Below, piece after piece: positions 6,282 through 58,121 of a stretch of 64,000 nucleotides of DNA. Origin of the DNA: Dehalococcoidia bacterium (GTDB lineage: Bacteria > Chloroflexota > Dehalococcoidia > Plut-88900); NCBI GenBank assembly GCA_965207225.1, contig CBDBLV010000005.1:1728001-1792000 (forward strand). The letters are read 5' to 3'. The stretch's first letter is position 1, and every line of letters begins with the position of its first letter. Below the pieces are notes generated by a model, which was not told the origin of the DNA, did no database searches, and saw only the letters and a program-made list of their open reading frames with translations. The translations under genes were made by a program, and so were the position numbers.

Positions 6282-6466
6282 CATCCCTCCCCTGCCCTCC
6301 ATAGAGACGACCCGCCCCCGGCATTGTGTATACTTGCCGAACCGAAGGCCGCTGCTTCTGGAAACCACATGCGCCGACGCCTCTCAAACCTTCGGCGTCT
6401 CCCCTCGATACACTTGGCGGCATGAATTGGTAGCCATTAAACAGGTCTAGCGGAAGCCCCGACTTG

Positions 6467-8374
6467 ATGGACGCCGACTCAACAGCTAAAACGAGCAGGC
6501 CCAGCGGAGTCGTAAGGCGTACCGCCGCCGCCTTCCGCCCATACTGGATCAAACTCCTCGGAATCGCATTCCTGATCCTTGTGACTGCCGGCCTGGGAGT
6601 GGTCAATCCTCTCTTGATCCGAGAGGTGTTCGACTCCGCCCTCTTCCCACCCTCCGGCACCCCCGACCTGACCCTGCTCTGGATTCTGGCCGGGGTGATG
6701 GTGGGGGTTGCCGTGGTAACTGGGGGTCTCGGGATTGTCCAGACCTACATGACCAATCTGGTGGGCCAGCGAGTCATGCGCGACCTGCGAGACCGCCTCT
6801 ACGTTCACCTCCAGGGCCTGTCGCTGGGCTTCTTTTCGGGGACTCGTACAGGCGAAATCCAGTCCCGCATAGCCAACGACGTAGGAGGAGTCCAGAACGT
6901 CGTCACCACTACCGTCTCCAATGTCCTGTCTAACACGGTCATTGTAATCAGCACCGTTGCGGCCATGACCGTACTCTCCTGGCAGCTTACGGTCGTGGCT
7001 GTGGGAACCACCCCAATCTTCTTCGCCCTCTCCAAACTGGTGGGAGACCGACGCCGCGCCGTCACGGCCCAGTCCCAGAAGGCGGCGGCGGACATGACCG
7101 CTACCACCCAGGAGACCCTGTCCATCTCTGGCATCATGCTGGCCAAGCTATTCGGCCGGCAGAACCAGGAAAGCGAACGATTCCGGACCGAAAACCAGCG
7201 GCTGGCCGACCTCTCGGTGCGCCTGCAGATGACCGGCCAGTCCTTCTTCGCCGTGATGCGCATATTCTTCTCCATCTCCCCCGTGGCCATCTACCTCATT
7301 GCCGGCTACCTGCTTACCGGGAGCGCCTTTGGGGGAGTGACCGCCGGGACCCTGGTCGCCTTCACCACGCTCCAGTCCAGGCTGTTCTTCCCCATGGGCA
7401 GCCTGCTCCAGGTGTCGGTGGAGCTCCAGGCCTCGCTGGCATTGTTCGAGCGCATATTCGGCTACCTCGGCATCGAGCCCGACATTACGGACTCGCCCAG
7501 CGCGACCAGGTTGGACCACCGGCAAGTCCGAGGTCGAGTGTCCTTCAAGTCGGTGGGCCTGTCTTATGAGGACCCTTCTGAGCGCGAAACAACCAGCCAG
7601 CGATGGGCCCTGCGCGGAGTTAGCTTTCACGTTGAGCCGGGGCAATTGGCAGCTTTCGTCGGGCCGAGCGGGGCAGGCAAAACCACCATCTCCTACCTGA
7701 TTCCCCGTCTGTACGACCCTACCGAGGGCTCGGTGCTGATCGACGGACTGGACGTCCGGGCGATCAGCCTCGAAAGCCTCGCCCGACTCACCGGCTACGT
7801 GACCCAGGAGAGCTACCTGTTTCACGCCAGCATCAGGAACAACCTTCTGTACGGAAACCCTGAGGCTTCCCAGCAAGAGATTGAGGCCGCCGCCCGGGCC
7901 GCCTACATACACGACAAGATCATGGAATTCCCCGACGGCTACAATACGGTGGTCGGCGAACGCGGCTACAGGCTGTCCGGGGGCGAACGTCAGAGGCTGT
8001 CCATAGCCAGGGTGATTCTTCACGACCCCCGGGTGTTGATCCTGGATGAGGCTACCTCGGCCCTGGACACGGCGAGCGAACGCCAGGTCCAGGCCGCCCT
8101 GGAACCACTGATGCGCGGCAGGACCGCCATCGCCATAGCACACCGTCTCTCCACGATCATGGCGGCGGACGTGATATTTGCAATGGACAGGGGCAGGATA
8201 GTGGAGCAGGGCACTCATGCAGAGCTCCTCGAGCATGGGGGCTTGTACGCAAGGCTCTATACCGAACAGTTCGAGGGTGGGCGCGTCGAATGTATTTGCG
8301 AGGACGGGGTAGTCCTGTGCGACGGCACCATAGAGCAGTTCATCGAACCCGCCTTGCCCGTCGTCAGCCGGTGA
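6467..8374 (+). CDS. ABC exporter, fused permease and ATPase (MsbA-like)
   Basis: N-terminal TM helices, Walker A GPSGAGKT, signature LSGGERQR, Walker B LILDEATSALD, AHRLST. Confidence 0.93.
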   Translation: MDADSTAKTSRPSGVVRRTAAAFRPYWIKLLGIAFLILVTAGLGVVNPLLIREVFDSALFPPSGTPDLTLLWILAGVMVGVAVVTGGLGIVQTYMTNLVGQRVMRDLRDRLYVHLQGLSLGFFSGTRTGEIQSRIANDVGGVQNVVTTTVSNVLSNTVIVISTVAAMTVLSWQLTVVAVGTTPIFFALSKLVGDRRRAVTAQSQKAAADMTATTQETLSISGIMLAKLFGRQNQESERFRTENQRLADLSVRLQMTGQSFFAVMRIFFSISPVAIYLIAGYLLTGSAFGGVTAGTLVAFTTLQSRLFFPMGSLLQVSVELQASLALFERIFGYLGIEPDITDSPSATRLDHRQVRGRVSFKSVGLSYEDPSERETTSQRWALRGVSFHVEPGQLAAFVGPSGAGKTTISYLIPRLYDPTEGSVLIDGLDVRAISLESLARLTGYVTQESYLFHASIRNNLLYGNPEASQQEIEAAARAAYIHDKIMEFPDGYNTVVGERGYRLSGGERQRLSIARVILHDPRVLILDEATSALDTASERQVQAALEPLMRGRTAIAIAHRLSTIMAADVIFAMDRGRIVEQGTHAELLEHGGLYARLYTEQFEGGRVECICEDGVVLCDGTIEQFIEPALPVVSR

Positions 8375-8531
8375 GCCCGACCCCGGCAATCTTTAAGCTT
8401 GTATCCGGCGCTCAATCATCACCTGGCTCTAACCCAACCACAACGGATAACCCCTAAGCCCTCCCTCCCGTCATGGTTGACACCAGCCTGTTTCCGAGCC
8501 GTCCGAAAGTATGAGTCCATTCCTCATCCTA

Positions 8532-8568
8532 TTCGTCATTCCCGACCCCGATCGGGAATCCATCCCCG
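8532..8568 (+). repeat. CGTC-tagged REP-like palindrome, family 1 copy a
   Basis: TTCGTCATTCCCGACCCCGATCGGGAATCCATCCCCG; 36/37 identical to 9841-9877. Confidence 0.85.
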
Positions 8569-8574
8569 GGTGAC

Positions 8575-8611
8575 GGGGCCGCTCATGCTGAGGCTCTCGA
8601 AGTATGAGCGG
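8575..8611 (+). repeat. REP-like hairpin, family 2 (CGCTC..[GC]CTGAG...TCGAAG..G[AG]GCG)
   Basis: Related copies at 9515-9552, 14832-14867, 29838-29884 and 40369-40407. Confidence 0.8.
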
Positions 8612-8680
8612 AGGCGGGGCCCACGGCTTGCCAATACGTCCCGTCAGCCTTGCAAAAGCCCCACCCCCCCTCTCCCATCC

Positions 8681-8708
8681 CATTCCGATGCCCCGCGAGG
8701 AATCTAGG
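8681..8708 (+). repeat. REP-like element, family 3 (CAT[TC]CCGA[TG]GCCCCGCGAGG[GA]ATCT)
   Basis: Related copies at 12020-12048 and 40470-40500, an interrupted copy at 40295-40347 and a degenerate one at 29804-29832. Confidence 0.8.
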
Positions 8709-8750
8709 ATTTGCCCACTCATGTCCTTTACCTCCCTCCCCCCTCCTCCC

Positions 8751-8890
8751 CAGTACTGAACTAGAGGCAGAGGTCGGCGCAGAAGCGCCGACCTCTGCCT
8801 CTGTTCTTCTCTCCCCCTCTCCCTTATAGGCCCTAAGAGCCTGCCCCGTACCCCGATACGGGGGAGAGGGGGATCAAGGGGGTGAGGGTT
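8751..8890 (+). repeat. Composite hairpin module A
   Basis: CAGTACtgAACT, perfect 18-bp stem (8763-8780/8785-8802), GTTCTT, CTCTCCCC...GGGGAGAG segment, CAAGGGGGTGAGGGTT. Paralogous to 9631-9769. Confidence 0.85.
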
Positions 8891-8930
8891 CCCCTGTGGG
8901 GTCGAGGGGCACCCCCCCAAACGTGTACAT

Positions 8931-8959
8931 TTGCACTACCTGAACTCCCGTGCTATAAT
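8931..8959 (+). promoter_or_regulatory. Near-consensus sigma70 promoter with extended -10
   Basis: TTGCAC (8931-8936), 17 bp, TATAAT (8954-8959), preceded by TG at 8951-8952. Confidence 0.7.
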
Positions 8960-9022
8960 AACCCCCAGGCATCCGATCTCGTACCTCGGAGCCCATCACA
9001 CAGGAAAGGAATAAGGAGTCTT

Positions 9023-10087
9023 ATGAGACGCAACAGCCTGATCAGCTCTCGTCCCACCCGGGCCCTGCGCGAACGCCCGGCCACCGACACGCGCCTGCTC
9101 CCCTCACCCTTTCCTCCAGGCGATGGAAGGTCCATCGACTCTCCGCGGCACACCTGTCTTCCAGGTCTACCCCGCGGCTGCGCCCCCTCATTAGGGCGTC
9201 TAGCCCCCGCCATGCGCGAGGGGCTCTACCCCGACTTTGTCGGGTCCCCCGAGGGCATTGCGCCCCGGGACTACTCCCCCGTCTTCCCCCTCGGAGATCC
9301 CCTTTCACCCGGAGACGGCAAAGAGTCTGCGCTCCCATCCCTCCGAATGGTAGAGCGTCTCCCGCATACGGACAGGCCGCAAGGGGAAACTCCCTCCAGC
9401 CCTGCCGACTTGCGGGTCTGGCGCAGCTTGGCCCCCCCGCCCCTGCGCCCTGGTCATGGTCCTTCCATCGCCTACCCGGCCCTTCCCTTCTCCGTACTCC
9501 CCGACCCCCGGTGTGGGGCCGCTCACGCTGAGGCCACTCGAAGGGTCGAGCGAGGGGTGGCCCACATCCGACTGTCACGTCTCGCCGGTCATCCCCGCCC
9601 ACCCTATGCCGTCATCCCCTCCCCACCCACCAGTACCAAACTAGGGGCAAGCGCCTGCGCCAGGGCGCAGGCGCTTGCCCCTGTTTTTCTCTCCCCGTCG
9701 AGGGACTCGGGGCAGGCTCTTAGGGCCATTAAGGGAGAGGGGGAGAGGGAGACCAAGGGGGTGAGGGTTTCATCCCCGATCCTTAAACAATCAAAGCCGT
9801 GCCTGAAACCGCAAAACAATCAAAAACCCGCCCCCTCCCCTTCGTCATTCCCGACTCCGATCGGGAATCCATCCCCGTGGGGCGCGGTGCGGCGGGGATC
9901 TCCCCTGCACCACGCGAAATCCCCAGAAAACCCTTTAGGCGTCGTTCAATCAAACCAGCTACGAGTTCAATCAACTTTCAATCAACGTTCAATCAAAACC
10001 TCCCCCCACCCACTACCCGAAAATCGAAGACCACCATACGCTATAATGCCCCGAGACACCTTCCCCCGCCGGAGAACCCGACCATGA
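9023..10087 (+). CDS. Orphan Pro/Arg/Ser-rich ORF of doubtful coding status
   Basis: AAGGAG at 9013-9018 before ATG 9023, downstream of the strong promoter. First ~27 codons mostly C/G-ending, but the 3' half reads through repeats and no domain was recognised. Confidence 0.25.
   Translation: MRRNSLISSRPTRALRERPATDTRLLPSPFPPGDGRSIDSPRHTCLPGLPRGCAPSLGRLAPAMREGLYPDFVGSPEGIAPRDYSPVFPLGDPLSPGDGKESALPSLRMVERLPHTDRPQGETPSSPADLRVWRSLAPPPLRPGHGPSIAYPALPFSVLPDPRCGAAHAEATRRVERGVAHIRLSRLAGHPRPPYAVIPSPPTSTKLGASACARAQALAPVFLSPSRDSGQALRAIKGEGERETKGVRVSSPILKQSKPCLKPQNNQKPAPSPSSFPTPIGNPSPWGAVRRGSPLHHAKSPENPLGVVQSNQLRVQSTFNQRSIKTSPHPLPENRRPPYAIMPRDTFPRRRTRP
9631..9769 (+). repeat. Composite hairpin module B
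   Basis: CAGTACcaAACT, perfect 18-bp stem (9643-9660/9665-9682), GTTTTT, inner segment inverted relative to module A, CAAGGGGGTGAGGGTT. Confidence 0.85.
9841..9877 (+). repeat. CGTC-tagged REP-like palindrome, family 1 copy b
   Basis: TTCGTCATTCCCGACTCCGATCGGGAATCCATCCCCG; one mismatch to 8532-8568. Confidence 0.85.
9944..9997 (+). repeat. Phased direct repeats, core TTCAATCAA x4
   Basis: Units begin at 9944, 9965, 9976 and 9987 (spacing 21, 11, 11), upstream of TATAAT at 10042-10047. Confidence 0.8.
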
Positions 10088-11115
10088 GAATGGACTTCAG
10101 CGTCGCCTGGGGCCGAGCCCTCGCCTCCTACGAAATCGCCGACCACGCTGCCGCCGCAGAGCAGGCCGGCTTCGACATGCTCGGCATCATCGATACCCAG
10201 AACCTTGCCCGGGACCCCTATCCCGCCATGACCATAGCCGCCCTCAACACCAACCGCGTGCGCATCGGGCCCTCAGTGACCAACACCTTCACCCGGCACC
10301 CCGCAGTCACCGCCAACGCCATGGCCACCATCGACGAGATATCCGGGGGCCGGGCCTGGGTGGGGCTGGGGTCGGGGTTCAGCGCAGCCCGCACAATGGA
10401 CATCAACGTCCGTCCCATGGCGCTGCTCGAAAACGTCATCAACTTCATCCACACCTACACATCCGGGCACGAGGCCGAGTTTAACGGCGCCAAAATGCAC
10501 AACGAGTGGATACAGCGTCGACTCCCGGTGTACGTTCACGCCGCAGGCCCTAGGACCTGCGAAATCGCCGGTCGGCTGGGCGACGGCGTGCTCCTCTGTT
10601 CCAAGGGCAGCCCCATCGTCGCCAAGTGGTGCCTGGACCTGGTCCACCGGGCCGCCGAAAAGGCGGGTCGGGACCCCGACGACATCGACATCCGCGTCTG
10701 TCTCCCCCTCTACGTTGAGGAGGACGGAGACAGGGGTTGGGACGAGATGGCCGCCTCCGTCGCCACCATGTGTACTGGCTTCTATCTCTCCATCTTCCGC
10801 CACGACTCCAACCCCGACGTCCAGAGCCTGATCAGTCAGATCGACTCAGACCTGCTCCAGGAACTCAAGCGCGTCCACGACGCCTACGACTACTACCAGC
10901 ACGAACGCGTCGACGCCGACCACGCTAGGCTCGTCACCCGGCAACTCATAGACTTCGTCGGCATGTACGGCACCGCCGACCAGATCCGCGAACGTGTCTA
11001 CGAATTGCAGCAGGCCGGGGTCAAGGCGCTCGACTGCCACATGTGGACCTTTATCGACAAGAAGAAGCAGATGAGTCTTATCGGCGAAAGTATCATGCCC
11101 TATTTCAGGAACTAG
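10084..11115 (+). CDS. LLM-class oxidoreductase (Mer-like subfamily)
   Basis: GGAG RBS then ATG 10084. Motifs AEQAGFD, IGPSVTNTFTRHPAVTANAMATIDEISGGRAWVGLGSG, AAGPRT.EIAGRLGDG. Confidence 0.88.
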   Translation: MRMDFSVAWGRALASYEIADHAAAAEQAGFDMLGIIDTQNLARDPYPAMTIAALNTNRVRIGPSVTNTFTRHPAVTANAMATIDEISGGRAWVGLGSGFSAARTMDINVRPMALLENVINFIHTYTSGHEAEFNGAKMHNEWIQRRLPVYVHAAGPRTCEIAGRLGDGVLLCSKGSPIVAKWCLDLVHRAAEKAGRDPDDIDIRVCLPLYVEEDGDRGWDEMAASVATMCTGFYLSIFRHDSNPDVQSLISQIDSDLLQELKRVHDAYDYYQHERVDADHARLVTRQLIDFVGMYGTADQIRERVYELQQAGVKALDCHMWTFIDKKKQMSLIGESIMPYFRN

Positions 11116-12003: not shown

Positions 12004-12019
12004 ACCTGCATCCCCCTCC

Positions 12020-12048
12020 CATCCCGAGGCCCCGCGAGGGATCTGAGG
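12020..12048 (+). repeat. REP-like element, family 3 copy
   Basis: CATCCCGAGGCCCCGCGAGGGATCTGAGG between convergent genes. Confidence 0.7.
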
Positions 12049-14831: not shown

Positions 14832-14867
14832 GGGGCGCTCGTGCTGAGGCTCTCGAAGTATGGGCGG
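14832..14867 (+). repeat. REP-like hairpin, family 2 copy
   Basis: GGGGCGCTCGTGCTGAGGCTCTCGAAGTATGGGCGG; nearly identical to 8575-8611. Confidence 0.8.
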
Positions 14868-26039: not shown

Positions 26040-27200
26040 ATGGGCTATGACATCATATCGGCAGACACACATCTCGACATAACATGGCTTCCAGGCGACA
26101 TGTTTGTCGAAGGGGCGCCTGCGGCCATGAAGGACCGCATGCCCCGCATCAAGGACACCGATAGCGGCCCCCGCTGGATGGTGCATGAGACTGATATCGC
26201 AGGGGTCGGGGGTGGGGGTCTGACCGGAAACTTCAGCAAGTACGTCCGGGGCCAGTCCAAGCTCCTGGACAAGATGGACGACGTCGGCTTCTTCTCCGGC
26301 ATCGACGAGGGTATCTACCACCCATCCGATATCGACCTCCGCATCAAAGACCAGGACATAGATGGCATAGACGCCGAGGTAATGTACGGCATTCTCGCCA
26401 TTGGTGGGGGCGCATTCTCAATTCCCGGATTCGAAGACCCGAGGGTCCTGGCCACGGTCTATGACGTCTACAACGCGTGGGTCGGCGATTTCGTAAAGGC
26501 CAACCCGCAGAGGCTAGCCGCCCTTGGCTGCCTCAGTGTCCACGACCCCCAGGACGCCGCCCGACAGCTGCGCCTCGCCGCCGACTCCGGCCTGCGCGGC
26601 GCCGAGATCAACGTGAAGAAGATGACCAAGCCCATGTATCACAGTGCCTGGGACCCGCTATGGGAGACCTCCCAGGAGCTCGGCATGCCTGTATCTTTCC
26701 ACACTTTGGGTCTCGAATTACGCGCACCCGACCCCGAGGACGAGGCCGAATTCGGCCCGATCTACCATGGCATGACCACCGTCACCTTCCAGCTTTCCGG
26801 CGCCGAGATAGTGTCGGGCGTGGTCCTCTCCGGCGCCTGCGAAAGGTACCCGGACTTCAAGTTTGTGCTTGGCGAGTGCGGCATCGGTTGGATTCCCTAC
26901 GTTGTCGAACGCCTCGACATGGAATATGAAGACAAGTTCTTCCGCCTGGGCCTCAACCTCAAGCCCAGCGAGTACTGGCGCAGACAGGGCTATTCCACCT
27001 TCCAGTACGAATACGTCTCCATGGACCAGGTCAACAGAATCGGCGTGGACAGCATCATGTGGGGTTCCGACTACCCCCACCCCGACGGTGTCTTCCCCGA
27101 GTCCCGCAAGGTCATCCAGGAGACCCTCGGCCACCTTGAGCCCGACGTCTACCGAAAGATAGTCTGCGAAAACGCCGCCAACCTCTACGGATTCAATTAG
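26040..27200 (+). CDS. Amidohydrolase_2 family protein
   Basis: Motifs ISADTH, DQDIDGIDAEVMY, PVSFH, GECGIGWIP, MWGSDYPHPD. Confidence 0.9.
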   Translation: MGYDIISADTHLDITWLPGDMFVEGAPAAMKDRMPRIKDTDSGPRWMVHETDIAGVGGGGLTGNFSKYVRGQSKLLDKMDDVGFFSGIDEGIYHPSDIDLRIKDQDIDGIDAEVMYGILAIGGGAFSIPGFEDPRVLATVYDVYNAWVGDFVKANPQRLAALGCLSVHDPQDAARQLRLAADSGLRGAEINVKKMTKPMYHSAWDPLWETSQELGMPVSFHTLGLELRAPDPEDEAEFGPIYHGMTTVTFQLSGAEIVSGVVLSGACERYPDFKFVLGECGIGWIPYVVERLDMEYEDKFFRLGLNLKPSEYWRRQGYSTFQYEYVSMDQVNRIGVDSIMWGSDYPHPDGVFPESRKVIQETLGHLEPDVYRKIVCENAANLYGFN

Positions 27201-27214
27201 GCTGATAAGGGAGC

Positions 27215-27258
27215 GAAAGAAGAAGGCCCCACCGGCAACGGCGGGGCCTTCTTCTTTC
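27215..27258. terminator. Bidirectional intrinsic terminator
   Basis: GAAAGAAGAAGGCCCC-accggcaacggc-GGGGCCTTCTTCTTTC between convergent genes. Confidence 0.85.
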
Positions 27259-27272
27259 CATGAGGGTAATGC

Positions 27273-29682: not shown

Positions 29683-29837
29683 AAGACCTCCGAGGGACTA
29701 ATAATGGGTGACCCCGACGATGAGGTGAGTTTGTAGTATAGGCCAAAGCCTTTGTCAACCGCCCTTGTTGCCCCTTCTCACTCGACGAGCCTTTTGTACA
29801 ACTGTCATCCTATGTCCCGCAGAAATATGGGGTGGGA

Positions 29838-29884
29838 CATTCCGCTCGCCCTGAGCGGAGTCGAAGGGTCTCAAGAGCGGAATG
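29838..29884 (+). repeat. REP-like hairpin, family 2 copy
   Basis: CATTCCGCTC-GCCCTGAGCGGAGTCGAAGGGTCTCAA-GAGCGGAATG. Confidence 0.65.
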
Positions 29885-29935
29885 GGCGGGGTGCCCGTAA
29901 GCGCTTCGATTGATTGTGCGTAATGGAGCTGCAGC

Positions 29936-32582: not shown

Positions 32583-32705
32583 ACACACCCCTTCCTTATC
32601 GTCATTCCCGCCTCCGAGCTGGCATCTATTCCTTTCGGGTGAGCCTGCCATGTCTACTGTCGGCCCCGACACACTTGGTCGGTGGAGAGGCAAGACCTGC
32701 CTGGC

Positions 32706-40294: not shown

Positions 40295-40500
40295 GTCATT
40301 CCGATGCCCCAGAAGACCGAAGATGCGCCTCTGTGGTGAATCTGGGGCGGGGCTGCTGTCCCTGGTGCGGGGCCGCTCACCCTGAGCAGCGTCGAAGGGT
40401 CGGGCGGAAGGGTGGCCCGTACACTGCCAACCCGTCACGCCTGCTGCCACCACCAGACCCGACTCCCCTGTCATCCCGATGCCCCGCGAGGGATCTGGGG
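40295..40500 (+). repeat. Intergenic REP cluster (family 3, family 2, family 3)
   Basis: Interrupted family 3 copy 40295-40347, family 2 copy 40369-40407, family 3 copy 40470-40500. Confidence 0.75.
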
Positions 40501-56388: not shown

Positions 56389-58121
56389 CAGCCTGTCTCA
56401 GAAGTTGGGGAGTGGTGAATGGAACCTTGTTAGGTGTACCTTTGAAGCGACATCGACGAAGGAGAGATGGAGATGCCGCTTCGAGATATGGACCGAGAAC
56501 AGATGTGGCTGTTGCCCCCGACTCTTGACGATCTGTTGCCGTTAGACCATCCAGCCCGATTCGTGGCCGAGTTTGTGGACGCACTGGATAGGGAAGGCTG
56601 GGCTGAACTCGGCGTGGAGATAGACGGCGACCCGATGGGAGCGCCGGCCTACCATCCCCGCGCTTTGTTGAGCGTGTGGCTGTACGGTTTCATGACCGGG
56701 GTGCGCTCCTGCCGCAAGTTGGAGGCGGCCTGCCGGGACCAGATACCGTATCTGTGGCTGACCGGCTGGCAGCATCCTGACCACAACACCTTGTGGCGGT
56801 TCTACAAGGAACACAGGCAGTCCATGAGGAAGCTGTTCGAGCGCACTGTGCGCACGGCGGTGACGATGAAGCTGGTGGATCTGGCGGTGCAGGCGGTTGA
56901 CGGAACTAAGGTGGGGGCCAATGCGGCAAGAGATAGGACCTACGATGCGGGGGAGTTGGGTCGGTTATTGAACAGGGTGGAGAAGGCGATCTCCGACCTT
57001 GAAGCTCAGAACGAAGCAGGTGAGGATACCCCCGCATTACATCTGCCGGAAGAATTAGCCAACAAGCAAACGCTGAGGGAGCAGATTCGTCATGCGATGG
57101 ACGAGTTGGCTTCTGAGCGGAATCGCAAGCGCATCAACCTCACCGATCGGGATGCAAAACTCATGAGGACCCGTCAGGGCTTCATGCCCAGCTACAACGC
57201 CCAAGCTATGGTGTCACCGCTGGCACCAGGCGGACAGACGACCGGCATGCTGCTGACCGCCGTAGACGTTGTGGACCAAGTCAATGACGCCCTCCAGTTG
57301 ACCCCGATGATGGAACAGGCAGAGGGTGTTACAGGAACCAGGACTCCGTTGACGTTGGCAGACGCCGGTTATTGTGGAGGCCGGAACCTGGAGGCGAGTC
57401 ACCGTAAAGGTCAGCAAGTGGCAATGCCGGATATGGCCCGACCACTGGACAATCCCTATCACAAGGACCGATTCACCTATGACGAGGGCAACGACAGGTA
57501 CGTCTGTCCTCATGGAAAGATATTGCGCTTCTCCAGCTCGTCCACAAACGCCGGAACGCCGGTCCGGGTATACCGAGCAGCCTCTGCCTCGGCCTGCCGC
57601 AGTTGCCCCGCATTTGGGGTCTGCACCAAGGATTACCCACGGGGACGCAAGCTAGAAATCGGGGCACGCGACCATGTACTGCGCGCTCACAGAGAATGGA
57701 TGTCTACCGAGGCAGCCACGACGGCCTACAAACGGAGGAAGTACCTGGTCGAACCGGTCTTCGGGATCTTTAAGGAACAACTGAGGGCTCGGAGGTTCCT
57801 GTTGCGTGGCCTTGCCAACGTGAAGGCCGAATGGACGGTGCTTGCCATCGCCTTCAACCTCCGCACTATCTGGAAGGCGTGGAGACCCGGAGCCGACCCC
57901 TCCACTCAAGTATCCGCGGCCTAGTGCCTCTCCCCACTCTCTCACAGCAACTGCCGCTACTACACAACTCTCACCCTTCAATCCAGCATTCCCCTATCAC
58001 TTCCCGGCTGGGGTCGTAAAAGCGAACCCTGGTCTAAGCGGCATCTTCATCTCTTCGTAGATGTCGCGTCGGAACAGCTGCCGGGGCGCTATCCGTCACT
58101 TCCCACTTATGGGACAGCCTC
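56389..58121 (+). mobile_element. IS1182-family insertion sequence (1733 bp)
   Basis: Imperfect terminal IRs CAGCCTGTCTCAGAAGT / ACTTATGGGACAGCCTC. Target duplication TAGTC at 56384-56388 and 58122-58126. Confidence 0.9.
56467..57924 (+). CDS. IS1182-family DDE transposase
   Basis: Motifs Q.WLLPP.L, GAPAYHP, SCRKLE, PDHNTL.RF, VDGTKV.ANA, TDRDAKLM, YNAQ, ADAGY, VEPVFG..K. Intact 485 aa. Confidence 0.93.
   Translation: MEMPLRDMDREQMWLLPPTLDDLLPLDHPARFVAEFVDALDREGWAELGVEIDGDPMGAPAYHPRALLSVWLYGFMTGVRSCRKLEAACRDQIPYLWLTGWQHPDHNTLWRFYKEHRQSMRKLFERTVRTAVTMKLVDLAVQAVDGTKVGANAARDRTYDAGELGRLLNRVEKAISDLEAQNEAGEDTPALHLPEELANKQTLREQIRHAMDELASERNRKRINLTDRDAKLMRTRQGFMPSYNAQAMVSPLAPGGQTTGMLLTAVDVVDQVNDALQLTPMMEQAEGVTGTRTPLTLADAGYCGGRNLEASHRKGQQVAMPDMARPLDNPYHKDRFTYDEGNDRYVCPHGKILRFSSSSTNAGTPVRVYRAASASACRSCPAFGVCTKDYPRGRKLEIGARDHVLRAHREWMSTEAATTAYKRRKYLVEPVFGIFKEQLRARRFLLRGLANVKAEWTVLAIAFNLRTIWKAWRPGADPSTQVSAA

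Follow-up and report, generated by a model that had tools for sequence, protein, structure and literature searches.

The 64,000-nt stretch of a Dehalococcoidia bacterium analyzed here (contig CBDBLV010000005.1, positions 1,728,001 to 1,792,000; referred to as the window) contains two hairpin-bearing modules, A and B, on either side of an orphan unit that possesses its own predicted promoter. All three are located in a 1.7-kb gap (8400-10080) separating the gene of an ATP-binding cassette (ABC) transporter from that of a luciferase-like (LLM) oxidoreductase, both on the plus strand (Table 1). A and B are independent copies of a modular intergenic repeat, which occurs in large numbers within a clade of uncultured Dehalococcoidia and probably serves as a reusable transcription-boundary element. 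The initial annotation of this locus had proposed that the modules are either the two ends of a non-autonomous mobile element or the borders of an insulated transcription unit. The former proposal did not withstand comparison with other copies of the repeat; the latter fits the anatomy of the locus, where two terminator-like hairpins enclose a promoter and, after it, a non-coding unit.

Membership and anatomy of the repeat family

The CAGTAC starts of the modules are exactly 880 bp apart, as initially annotated. Homology between A and B runs from CCAGTAC to GAGGGTT, beyond which the sequences are unrelated, and the 16-mer tag CAAGGGGGTGAGGGTT is present in exact form at 8875 and 9754. A collection of species-representative genomes was scanned with this tag, which gave at least 102 loci (numbered with the prefix L); all copy numbers of the family are lower bounds. 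Among the matches listed, 41 of the 102 tag loci belong to seven Dehalococcoidia assemblies of metagenome-assembled genomes, 21 of them to chromosome OZ241876.1. The window's own locus is absent among the matches listed, so the copies were sampled from related Dehalococcoidia assemblies and not from the source genome. A covariance model (R1) built from 43 copies and used with a full-length threshold of 43 bits yielded at least 51 full-length matches (at least 50 non-redundant), all of them, among the matches listed, in the seven assemblies, while the tag loci of other taxa gave none among the matches listed. Over the window, R1 detected A and B as the two family members; a weak match on the minus strand (27188-27271, 21.5 bits) was rejected since it is an ordinary terminator hairpin. 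Tag matches outside the family are due to chance, to tRNA-Leu genes or to small C-rich/G-rich hairpins from other phyla with a comparable G-rich tail. By eye, the tag falls into the variable-arm/T-arm region of tRNA-Leu-type genes in L007, L040, L042, L043, L068, L071, L080, L083, L087 and L089, which is taken as a coincidence. In L036, L044, L053, L063, L095 and L009, all from other phyla, a small CCCTCTCC.../...GGAGAGGG hairpin stands ahead of it, and the part comprising the second hairpin and the tag may belong to a far broader group of short repeats. A blastn query of a plasmid collection returned one 35-bp chance match on a Sulfurovum plasmid.

All copies lie between predicted genes. In a basic copy of about 115-140 bp, the CAGTAC head and two variable bases precede hairpin 1 (H1), after which come hairpin 2 (H2; arm TCCCCCTCTCCC, loop TTAnnGGCCCTAA, arm GGGAGAGGGGGA) and the tag. 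H1 subfamily, type of H2 insert and type of extension combine freely among the copies, resulting in a mosaic family. Over 157 nt, module A shares 89.8% identity with L023, and its identity to L031 is 88.3%, but its mean column identity to B is 73%; thus, the two modules of the window do not form a pair of sisters. In addition, half-hairpin copies, in which H1 is reduced to its 5′ arm, were observed (L011:2770, L067:2957 and 3017, L077:2017, L085:392, L098:335). They belong to one stem subfamily, are all located on OZ241876.1 and often occur in tandem, directly ahead of a full module.

The perfect 18-bp stem with a 4-nt loop reported for A was recovered (arms 8763-8780/8785-8802, 100% complementary); in B, arms of 24 nt each (9638-9661/9664-9687) are 92% complementary. 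Although the common architecture of the modules stood, the nnAACT head and the GTT(C/T)TT tail are not separate parts as had been assumed. Both belong to the stem, which comprises 21-23 bp around an invariant bulged T. Read directly, the 18-nt arms of A and B are unlike at six positions, and all six differences are compensated. The stems differ because each module comes from another old subfamily of H1, of which a handful, related to each other, are common to several genomes (the A type in L008, L023 and L052, the B type in L067 and L085). Selection on stem structure, suggested earlier from the two modules, was corroborated by an alignment of 43 two-armed copies, in which complementarity is kept. 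With 21 bp counted, 96.8% of 903 pair cells are paired and double-sided changes occur at 16 of the 21 pairs, whereas slid alignments pair at 32-58% and the observed pairing was reached in none of 500 shuffles. The 18 inner pairs showed standard pairing in 97.7% of 774 cells (slid controls 29-55%) and changes on both sides at 14 pairs (176 cells). At pair 9-60, part of the head/tail extension of the stem, 25 copies have G-C and 16 have A-U.

The segment of about 60 bp described between stem and tag exists, but it is in fact a second hairpin, the loop of which carries an insert of about 25 nt. This insert was found in the window copies and six others; further copies contain different inserts at the same point. 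It was also correct that the segment is oppositely oriented in the two modules. A 20-mer core occurs once on the plus strand (8829) and once on the minus strand (9708), with 0.02 matches expected from shuffles and two matches in none of 100 shuffles. The flipped segment corresponds to an inverted pair (8809-8863 versus 9693-9747) of 55 nt and 85% complementarity. The flip covers the whole H2 of B, whose left arm is 8 nt shorter. Of 45 tag-bearing copies with a recognisable loop core, 44 have H2 oriented as in A, and only B of the window is flipped. On the coding strand, the G-rich arm of H2 and the tag (8860-8887, 9739-9766) contain the G-runs GGG, GGGGG, GGGGG and GGG at distances of 3-5 nt, which, read directly, match a canonical G-quadruplex motif. 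In five copies, the H2 loop is occupied by an insertion sequence (IS) of about 1.3 kb (two in L027, the others in L034, L066/L067 and L079); of one more copy, L091 shows only the end. This IS, inserted in either orientation, has perfect terminal inverted repeats and an apparent duplication of about 4-5 bp of loop sequence. It encodes a 384-aa HTH + rve transposase and is IS481/IS3-like by domain content; its copies are 97-99% identical.

Predicted transcription signals and the non-coding unit

H1 resembles a terminator because of the T/C-rich tail by which it is followed. The terminator scan called H1 of both modules (A: 19 pairs, 13 G-C, tail TTCTTCTCTC), and a T/C-rich tail of this style was also seen at an ordinary terminator elsewhere in the window that is unrelated to the family. 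Like intrinsic terminators, H1 possesses a G+C-rich stem with a loop of 3-4 nt, its tail is rich in T on the coding strand, and it seems to be situated at transcription-unit boundaries. In bidirectional terminators, an A-rich head pairs with a T-rich tail, which is likewise the case in H1. The genes around the copies were predicted by a codon-usage caller trained on the window (49 rows, one of which is a false match of the regular expression). The nearest downstream gene is on the strand of the module in 31 cases, on the opposite strand in nine and absent in nine; four of the nine opposite-strand genes are transposase genes of the IS inserted in H2. The nearest upstream gene is co-directional at 25 of 40 copies. 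The 111 proteins encoded in the 2-kb flanks have housekeeping or metabolic functions (e.g., S15/PNPase, GlnRS, MoaA, CofD).

After the tag, 17 of 44 family copies carry an extension termed alpha, consisting of GGGG/CCCC hairpins and the motif TTGACx-16/18-TAxxxT. This motif is kept while the sequences of the -10 region and spacer vary, as would be expected of a sigma-70-type promoter. The consensus promoter that had been annotated between the modules (score 10/12) was confirmed as the sole promoter-like site within 8300-10200 (0.3 expected). As alpha recurs after the tag, this promoter is part of the repeat. A gene of 375-440 aa without a Pfam match, containing basic tandem repeats in its N-terminal part, was noticed in several copies (L003:502-1821(-), L027:589-1908(-), L052:2343-3467(+), L069:750-1976(-)), and in each case it comes immediately after a module that carries an alpha promoter. 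Another extension, beta (CCTTAAACAATCAAAGCCGTGCCTGAAA...), follows the tag in nine of the 44 copies; in the window, A is of the alpha and B of the beta type. The box element that comes after beta in the window (9902-9998) is 92-94% identical to sequences directly upstream of unrelated genes in L008, L011, L067, L085 and L046. It may represent a shared leader or an array of regulator-binding sites. Elements of this type contain four to seven TTCAATCAA boxes, which in L031 lead straight into a Shine-Dalgarno sequence.

Taken as a transcription boundary, the module would work as follows. H1, a long G+C-rich hairpin with a T/C-rich tail, would act as a factor-independent terminator or insulator, after which alpha would restart transcription outward, and beta would supply a leader with CAATCAA boxes. 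In the window, transcripts of the ABC-transporter gene, which has a codon log-odds score of +168, is on the strand of the modules and stops 377 nt ahead of A, would be terminated at A. The alpha promoter of A would then drive a strongly folding non-coding unit of about 0.5-0.7 kb. H1 of B, likely the terminator of this unit, would end it, and the beta leader would precede the LLM gene.

The stretch 8966-9490 folds better than shuffled sequences on both strands (z = -6.0 on plus, -5.1 on minus) and has no coding potential. It is one of at least 13 units sharing a common layout (the others are in L008, L011, L024, L026, L034, L064, L067, L075, L077, L079, L090 and L099): an alpha promoter, a conserved 5′ domain (AAGGAGGAACCAAAAACCCAGGGAAG...), a closing core, a very variable, hairpin-rich interior and an A-rich tail. 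The closing core, GGCGATGGAAG ... CTTCCATCGCC, is invariant and its two halves are 295-650 nt apart, while the extension of the core covaries (GGTCC/GGACC versus ACGCC/GGCGT). The unit of the window is a diverged member; it is nearest to L075 and lacks the A-rich tail. In one genome, two units (L067 and L077) are 92.6% identical over 906 bp, from the promoter to a downstream half-module. The conserved promoter suggests that the units are transcribed. At the gathering score, Rfam gave no match in the window and 19 loci. Below this threshold, the region 8380-10090 matched generic miRNA-precursor hairpins alone, and the L079 unit had no match up to an E-value of 1. Support for a conserved interior structure was sought but not obtained: RNAalifold was favourable on two pairs of units, but an unbiased single-sequence test revealed many broken pairs and no strand signal. 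In the 5′ domain, covariation gave no support, a test which is uninformative there because the helices are nearly invariant.

Several observations weigh against the modules being simply transcription boundaries. At 15 of 40 copies the upstream gene is divergent, and H1 cannot terminate that gene there; in this and in being a repeat family with near-invariant flanks, the modules differ from ordinary intrinsic terminators. The U-tract of H1 is short and partly paired into the stem. The CAGTAC head, the bulged T and the tag are near-invariant, which suggests recognition by a protein and is not explained by termination itself. At least five one-armed copies in OZ241876.1 have multiplied; hence, spread is independent of an intact H1. 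Five units (L024, L026, L034, L064, L079) have no module before the next gene, and close pairs of units revealed no clear structure-preserving or strand-specific pattern of substitutions in the interior.

If the boundary function is true, uncultured Dehalococcoidia assemble many of their intergenic regions from a few reusable parts, namely a terminator-like hairpin, a promoter and a leader. For annotation, the modules could then be used to mark the boundaries of transcription units, and long open reading frames (ORFs) running through them, such as 9023-10087, would be spurious. At least 50 copies with compensated stems also constitute a natural data set on the upkeep of long perfect palindromes. 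Tentatively, and with considerable doubt, a wider reading can be put forward, according to which the family is an undescribed plug-and-play system of transcription boundaries. In it, a module recognised by a dedicated protein, and made up of the covarying 22-bp hairpin with its bulged T, the second hairpin and a G-rich tag capable of forming a G-quadruplex, would spread together with portable promoters. The units, each genome containing several of them under their own promoters, would represent a new class of large structured RNAs (0.45-0.9 kb), to which the window unit would belong as a diverged member. They would have a conserved 5′ domain exposing a perfect Shine-Dalgarno-like AAGGAGG and an invariant long-range helix closing a fast-changing interior. 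Large structured bacterial non-coding RNAs (ncRNAs) include OLE, GOLLD, ROOL and raiA, and the multi-copy units, which may be a new class of this kind, resemble them in size, absence of coding capacity, own promoter, numerous hairpins and long-range closing helix. On the other hand, the units have no Rfam match, are found several times in a genome, the copies having interiors that differ greatly, have a closing-helix core that never varies and lack covariation support in the interior.

Alternative explanations and known systems

The closest known counterparts are repetitive extragenic palindromic sequences (REPs) and bacterial interspersed mosaic elements (BIMEs). These are described as dispersed, intergenic hairpins with compensated stems which form mosaics, are targeted by IS and possibly have roles in termination (PMC2817692, PMC1525189, PMC3333891, PMC3116915). 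The family agrees with the REP/BIME elements of Proteobacteria, including REPINs (REP doublets forming hairpins) and their REP-associated tyrosine transposases (RAYTs), in its many dispersed intergenic copies, in G+C-rich hairpin subfamilies with compensated changes, in the mosaic combination with other short motifs, in being a preferred IS target and in a possible role in termination. High copy number, dispersal and extragenic position are found here as well, with at least 50 non-redundant copies in seven assemblies. By contrast, the head is CAGTAC with two variable nucleotides and not the GT(A/G)G given for REPs in PMC2817692, and the stem of 21-23 bp exceeds the roughly 10-15 bp of REPs. 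The clusters (10 of 10 direct) contain neither inverted doublets nor alternating orientations. The family also has a second hairpin and a G-rich tag, a promoter in many copies and a chloroflexotal host, and no RAYT was seen beside its copies in the window and 2-kb flanks, a search that did not extend to whole genomes.

It is conceivable, though rather unlikely, that the family is REP/REPIN-like selfish DNA, that is, a non-autonomous module copied by a single-copy HUH enzyme (Y1/RAYT-type) encoded elsewhere. This enzyme would recognise the foot of the hairpin, the CAGTAC head and the bulged T, and effects on transcription would be secondary. This explanation is compatible with the boundary function of the module but differs as to why the copies exist and how they spread. 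It accounts for the dispersed intergenic copies with crisp boundaries, the H1 subfamilies shared by several genomes that differ by compensated changes, and the invariant head and bulged T. The DDE-type IS in the H2 loop of five copies parallels the known targeting of REPs by IS (PMC1525189). Since termination alone does not explain why the flanks and the bulged T hardly vary, nor how half-hairpins have spread, there is room for such an enzyme-driven spread. However, the REP head, as given in PMC2817692, is missing, the stem has roughly double the length usual for REPs, inverted doublets are absent and the copies have a strong orientation bias toward the downstream gene. As the initial annotation had stated, a cognate enzyme is absent from the window: none of its 52 proteins matches Y1_Tnp, DUF559 or a site-specific recombinase. 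Y1_Tnp, DUF559 and site-specific recombinases were likewise not detected among the 111 proteins of the 2-kb flanks (whole genomes were not covered), and no HUH, RAYT or recombinase gene adjoins any copy within the window and these flanks.

Three further readings are unlikely, albeit to different degrees. A single mobile cassette made up of A, the unit and B, in which the modules would serve as termini or as recombination sites similar to attC, is quite improbable. It is true that the order of module with alpha, promoter, unit and module recurs in L011, L067 and L077, and that the two latter, which lie in one genome, share the 92.6% identity mentioned above. The initial annotation had named copies scattered singly, without pairing, as the finding that would speak against paired ends, and this is largely what the covariance-model scan revealed: clusters exist (10, all direct), but 21 of 30 four-kb family loci hold a single copy. 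Moreover, A is nearer to copies elsewhere than to B, five units lack a downstream module, and modules elsewhere bracket ordinary genes, as the clusters around genes for an amidohydrolase (L057), AIM24 (L013) and an ERG4-like protein (L021) demonstrate. The ends are direct and without a visible target duplication, and the flip of the inner segment is confined to B. The sole candidate for an empty site, L023 compared to L052, was discarded; L052 contains about 1.56 kb more, comprising a module with alpha and the 375-aa gene, but L023 keeps a remnant of the 3′ end of this gene, which indicates a deletion in L023 rather than the insertion of a cassette in L052. The ends of IS200/IS605 elements are different left and right subterminal hairpins with TnpA/TnpB between them and neither terminal inverted repeats nor a target-site duplication, whereas A and B share architecture and orientation and enclose a stretch without coding potential or a Y1_Tnp match. 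The core sites of integron attC are RYYYAAC and GTTRRRY; attC stems are imperfect, with extrahelical bases, and accompany an integron integrase or arrays of cassettes lacking promoters. ACTGAAC/ACCAAAC and GTTCTTC/GTTTTTC of the modules do not fit these cores, the bulged T is the sole imperfection of the stems, no integrase is encoded in the window or flanks and, unlike a cassette, the unit has its own promoter.

An even lower probability is assigned to H2 being a programmed invertible switch, of which B would show the other state. The flipped segment is indeed bounded by inverted arms and placed between a terminator-like hairpin and a downstream leader. Nevertheless, a flip in one of 45 copies suggests that the inversion happened just once, the window and flanks encode neither an invertase nor a recombinase, and the shortened left arm of B is what an untidy single event would leave. 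The flip is therefore read as a single inversion, probably between the inverted arms of H2, and not as a switch. Small hairpin-loop inversions bounded by inverted repeats occur in plastid non-coding DNA. The case of B is similar in that loop and insert were flipped between their own arms, apparently as a sporadic mutation; it differs in being bacterial and in affecting one copy in 45. Hardly credible is the assumption that the unit encodes the 355-aa protein of ORF 9023-10087. AAGGAG is located 5 nt ahead of its ATG at 9023, and the frame stays open up to an ATGA overlap with the next gene (10084-10087). The ORF was nevertheless rejected as a gene because of its codon log-odds score (-28), its low-complexity composition rich in P, R and S, and a frame that crosses two dispersed repeats of other types in addition to module B. 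It has no Pfam match, nine of 13 unit relatives, read directly, have the Shine-Dalgarno-like AAGGAGG without a start codon after it, and stop codons are scarce since the plus strand is C-rich here.

Correia elements of Neisseria are short, dispersed miniature inverted-repeat transposable elements (MITEs) carrying promoters or terminators. The family is similar as a short dispersed element which brings transcription signals into intergenic regions. Different from a MITE, the module has no terminal inverted repeats, as its ends CCAGTAC... and ...GAGGGTT do not match in inverted form, and no target-site duplication is common to the sequences around A and B. The family is thus filed here as a REP/BIME-like dispersed intergenic repeat that departs from the defining features of both REPs and MITEs. 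It is apparently undescribed, as had been presumed: there is no Rfam match, and a limited literature check found no paper on intergenic hairpin repeats of Dehalococcoidia and nothing relevant on ncRNAs of Chloroflexi. If this classification is true, it adds a REP/BIME-like system in a phylum for which the check found none described.

Further features of the window

Table 1. Features in and around the intergenic region with modules A and B (positions within the window)
Feature	Position	Strand	Remarks
ABC transporter gene, fused membrane and ATPase domains	6464..8374	+	Pfam ABC_membrane 1e-39, ABC_tran 4.6e-31
Three small dispersed hairpin repeats filling the spacer before A	8522-8578 (D6), 8575-8625 (D18/D16), 8667-8708 (D8)	+	repeat-family listing
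Module A: head CAGTAC, H1, H2 with loop insert, G-rich tag	8751..8890	+	R1 102.3 bits, E 1.8e-25
H1 of A: GAAC-(bulged T)-AGAGG, variable interior, 4-nt loop, complementary arm, T/C-rich tail	8758..8806	+	
H2 of A: C-rich arm, loop GGCCCTAAG with insert of ~25 nt, G-rich arm; tag CAAGGGGGTGAGGGTT at 8875-8890	8807..8890	+	
Alpha extension of A: short GGGG/CCCC hairpins, then predicted sigma-70-type promoter TTTGCA-18-TATAAT (8930-8959)	8891..8959	+	
Orphan unit: non-coding, hairpin-rich; closing inverted repeat 9119-9135 / 9456-9472	8966..9480	+	
Small dispersed repeat (GGGGCCGCTCAYGCTGAGG...) between unit and module B	9506..9565	+	family D16
Module B: architecture of A, other H1 subfamily, H2 flipped, tag 9754-9769	9631..9769	+	R1 73.3 bits, E 1.5e-17
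H1 of B, followed by TTTTTCTCTC	9638..9687	+	terminator scan: 19 pairs, 14 G-C
H2 of B, inverted compared to all other copies examined	9689..9752	-	
Beta extension of B (CCTTAAACAATCAAAGCCGTGCCTGAAAC...)	9770..9998	+	broken at 9831-9887 by small repeat; CAATCAA-box element 9902-9998 after it
Luciferase-like (LLM) oxidoreductase gene	10084..11115	+	Pfam Bac_luciferase 1.2e-49

The sole mobile gene of the window encodes a DDE transposase (56467-57921; DDE_Tnp_1_6 / DUF772) and is part of an IS at 56463-58054. Its 22-nt terminal inverted repeats are 91% complementary and unrelated to the module or to the closing repeat of the unit.

The families D6, D18/D16 and D8, which fill the spacer before A, were seen again in Dehalococcoidia loci. 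A small hairpin repeat (CGTCATTCCCGAC.CCGATCGGGAATCCATCCCC) is present at 8522-8578 and 9831-9887, on either side of the block formed by A, the unit and B, and at 32588-32644; relatives of it are frequent in Dehalococcoidia loci. Another small repeat family (GGGGCCGCTCAYGCTGAGGC..CTCGAAG..GAGCGG) occurs at 8575-8625, 9506-9565, 14832-14867 and 40360-40406 and also in L024, L026 and L075, while D8 (..CATYCCGATGCCCCGCGAGGRATCT..) is found at 8667-8708, 12006-12047 and 40458-40499. Finally, a short element at 29827-29896 has counterparts of 91-93% identity in L021, L031, L057 and L075.

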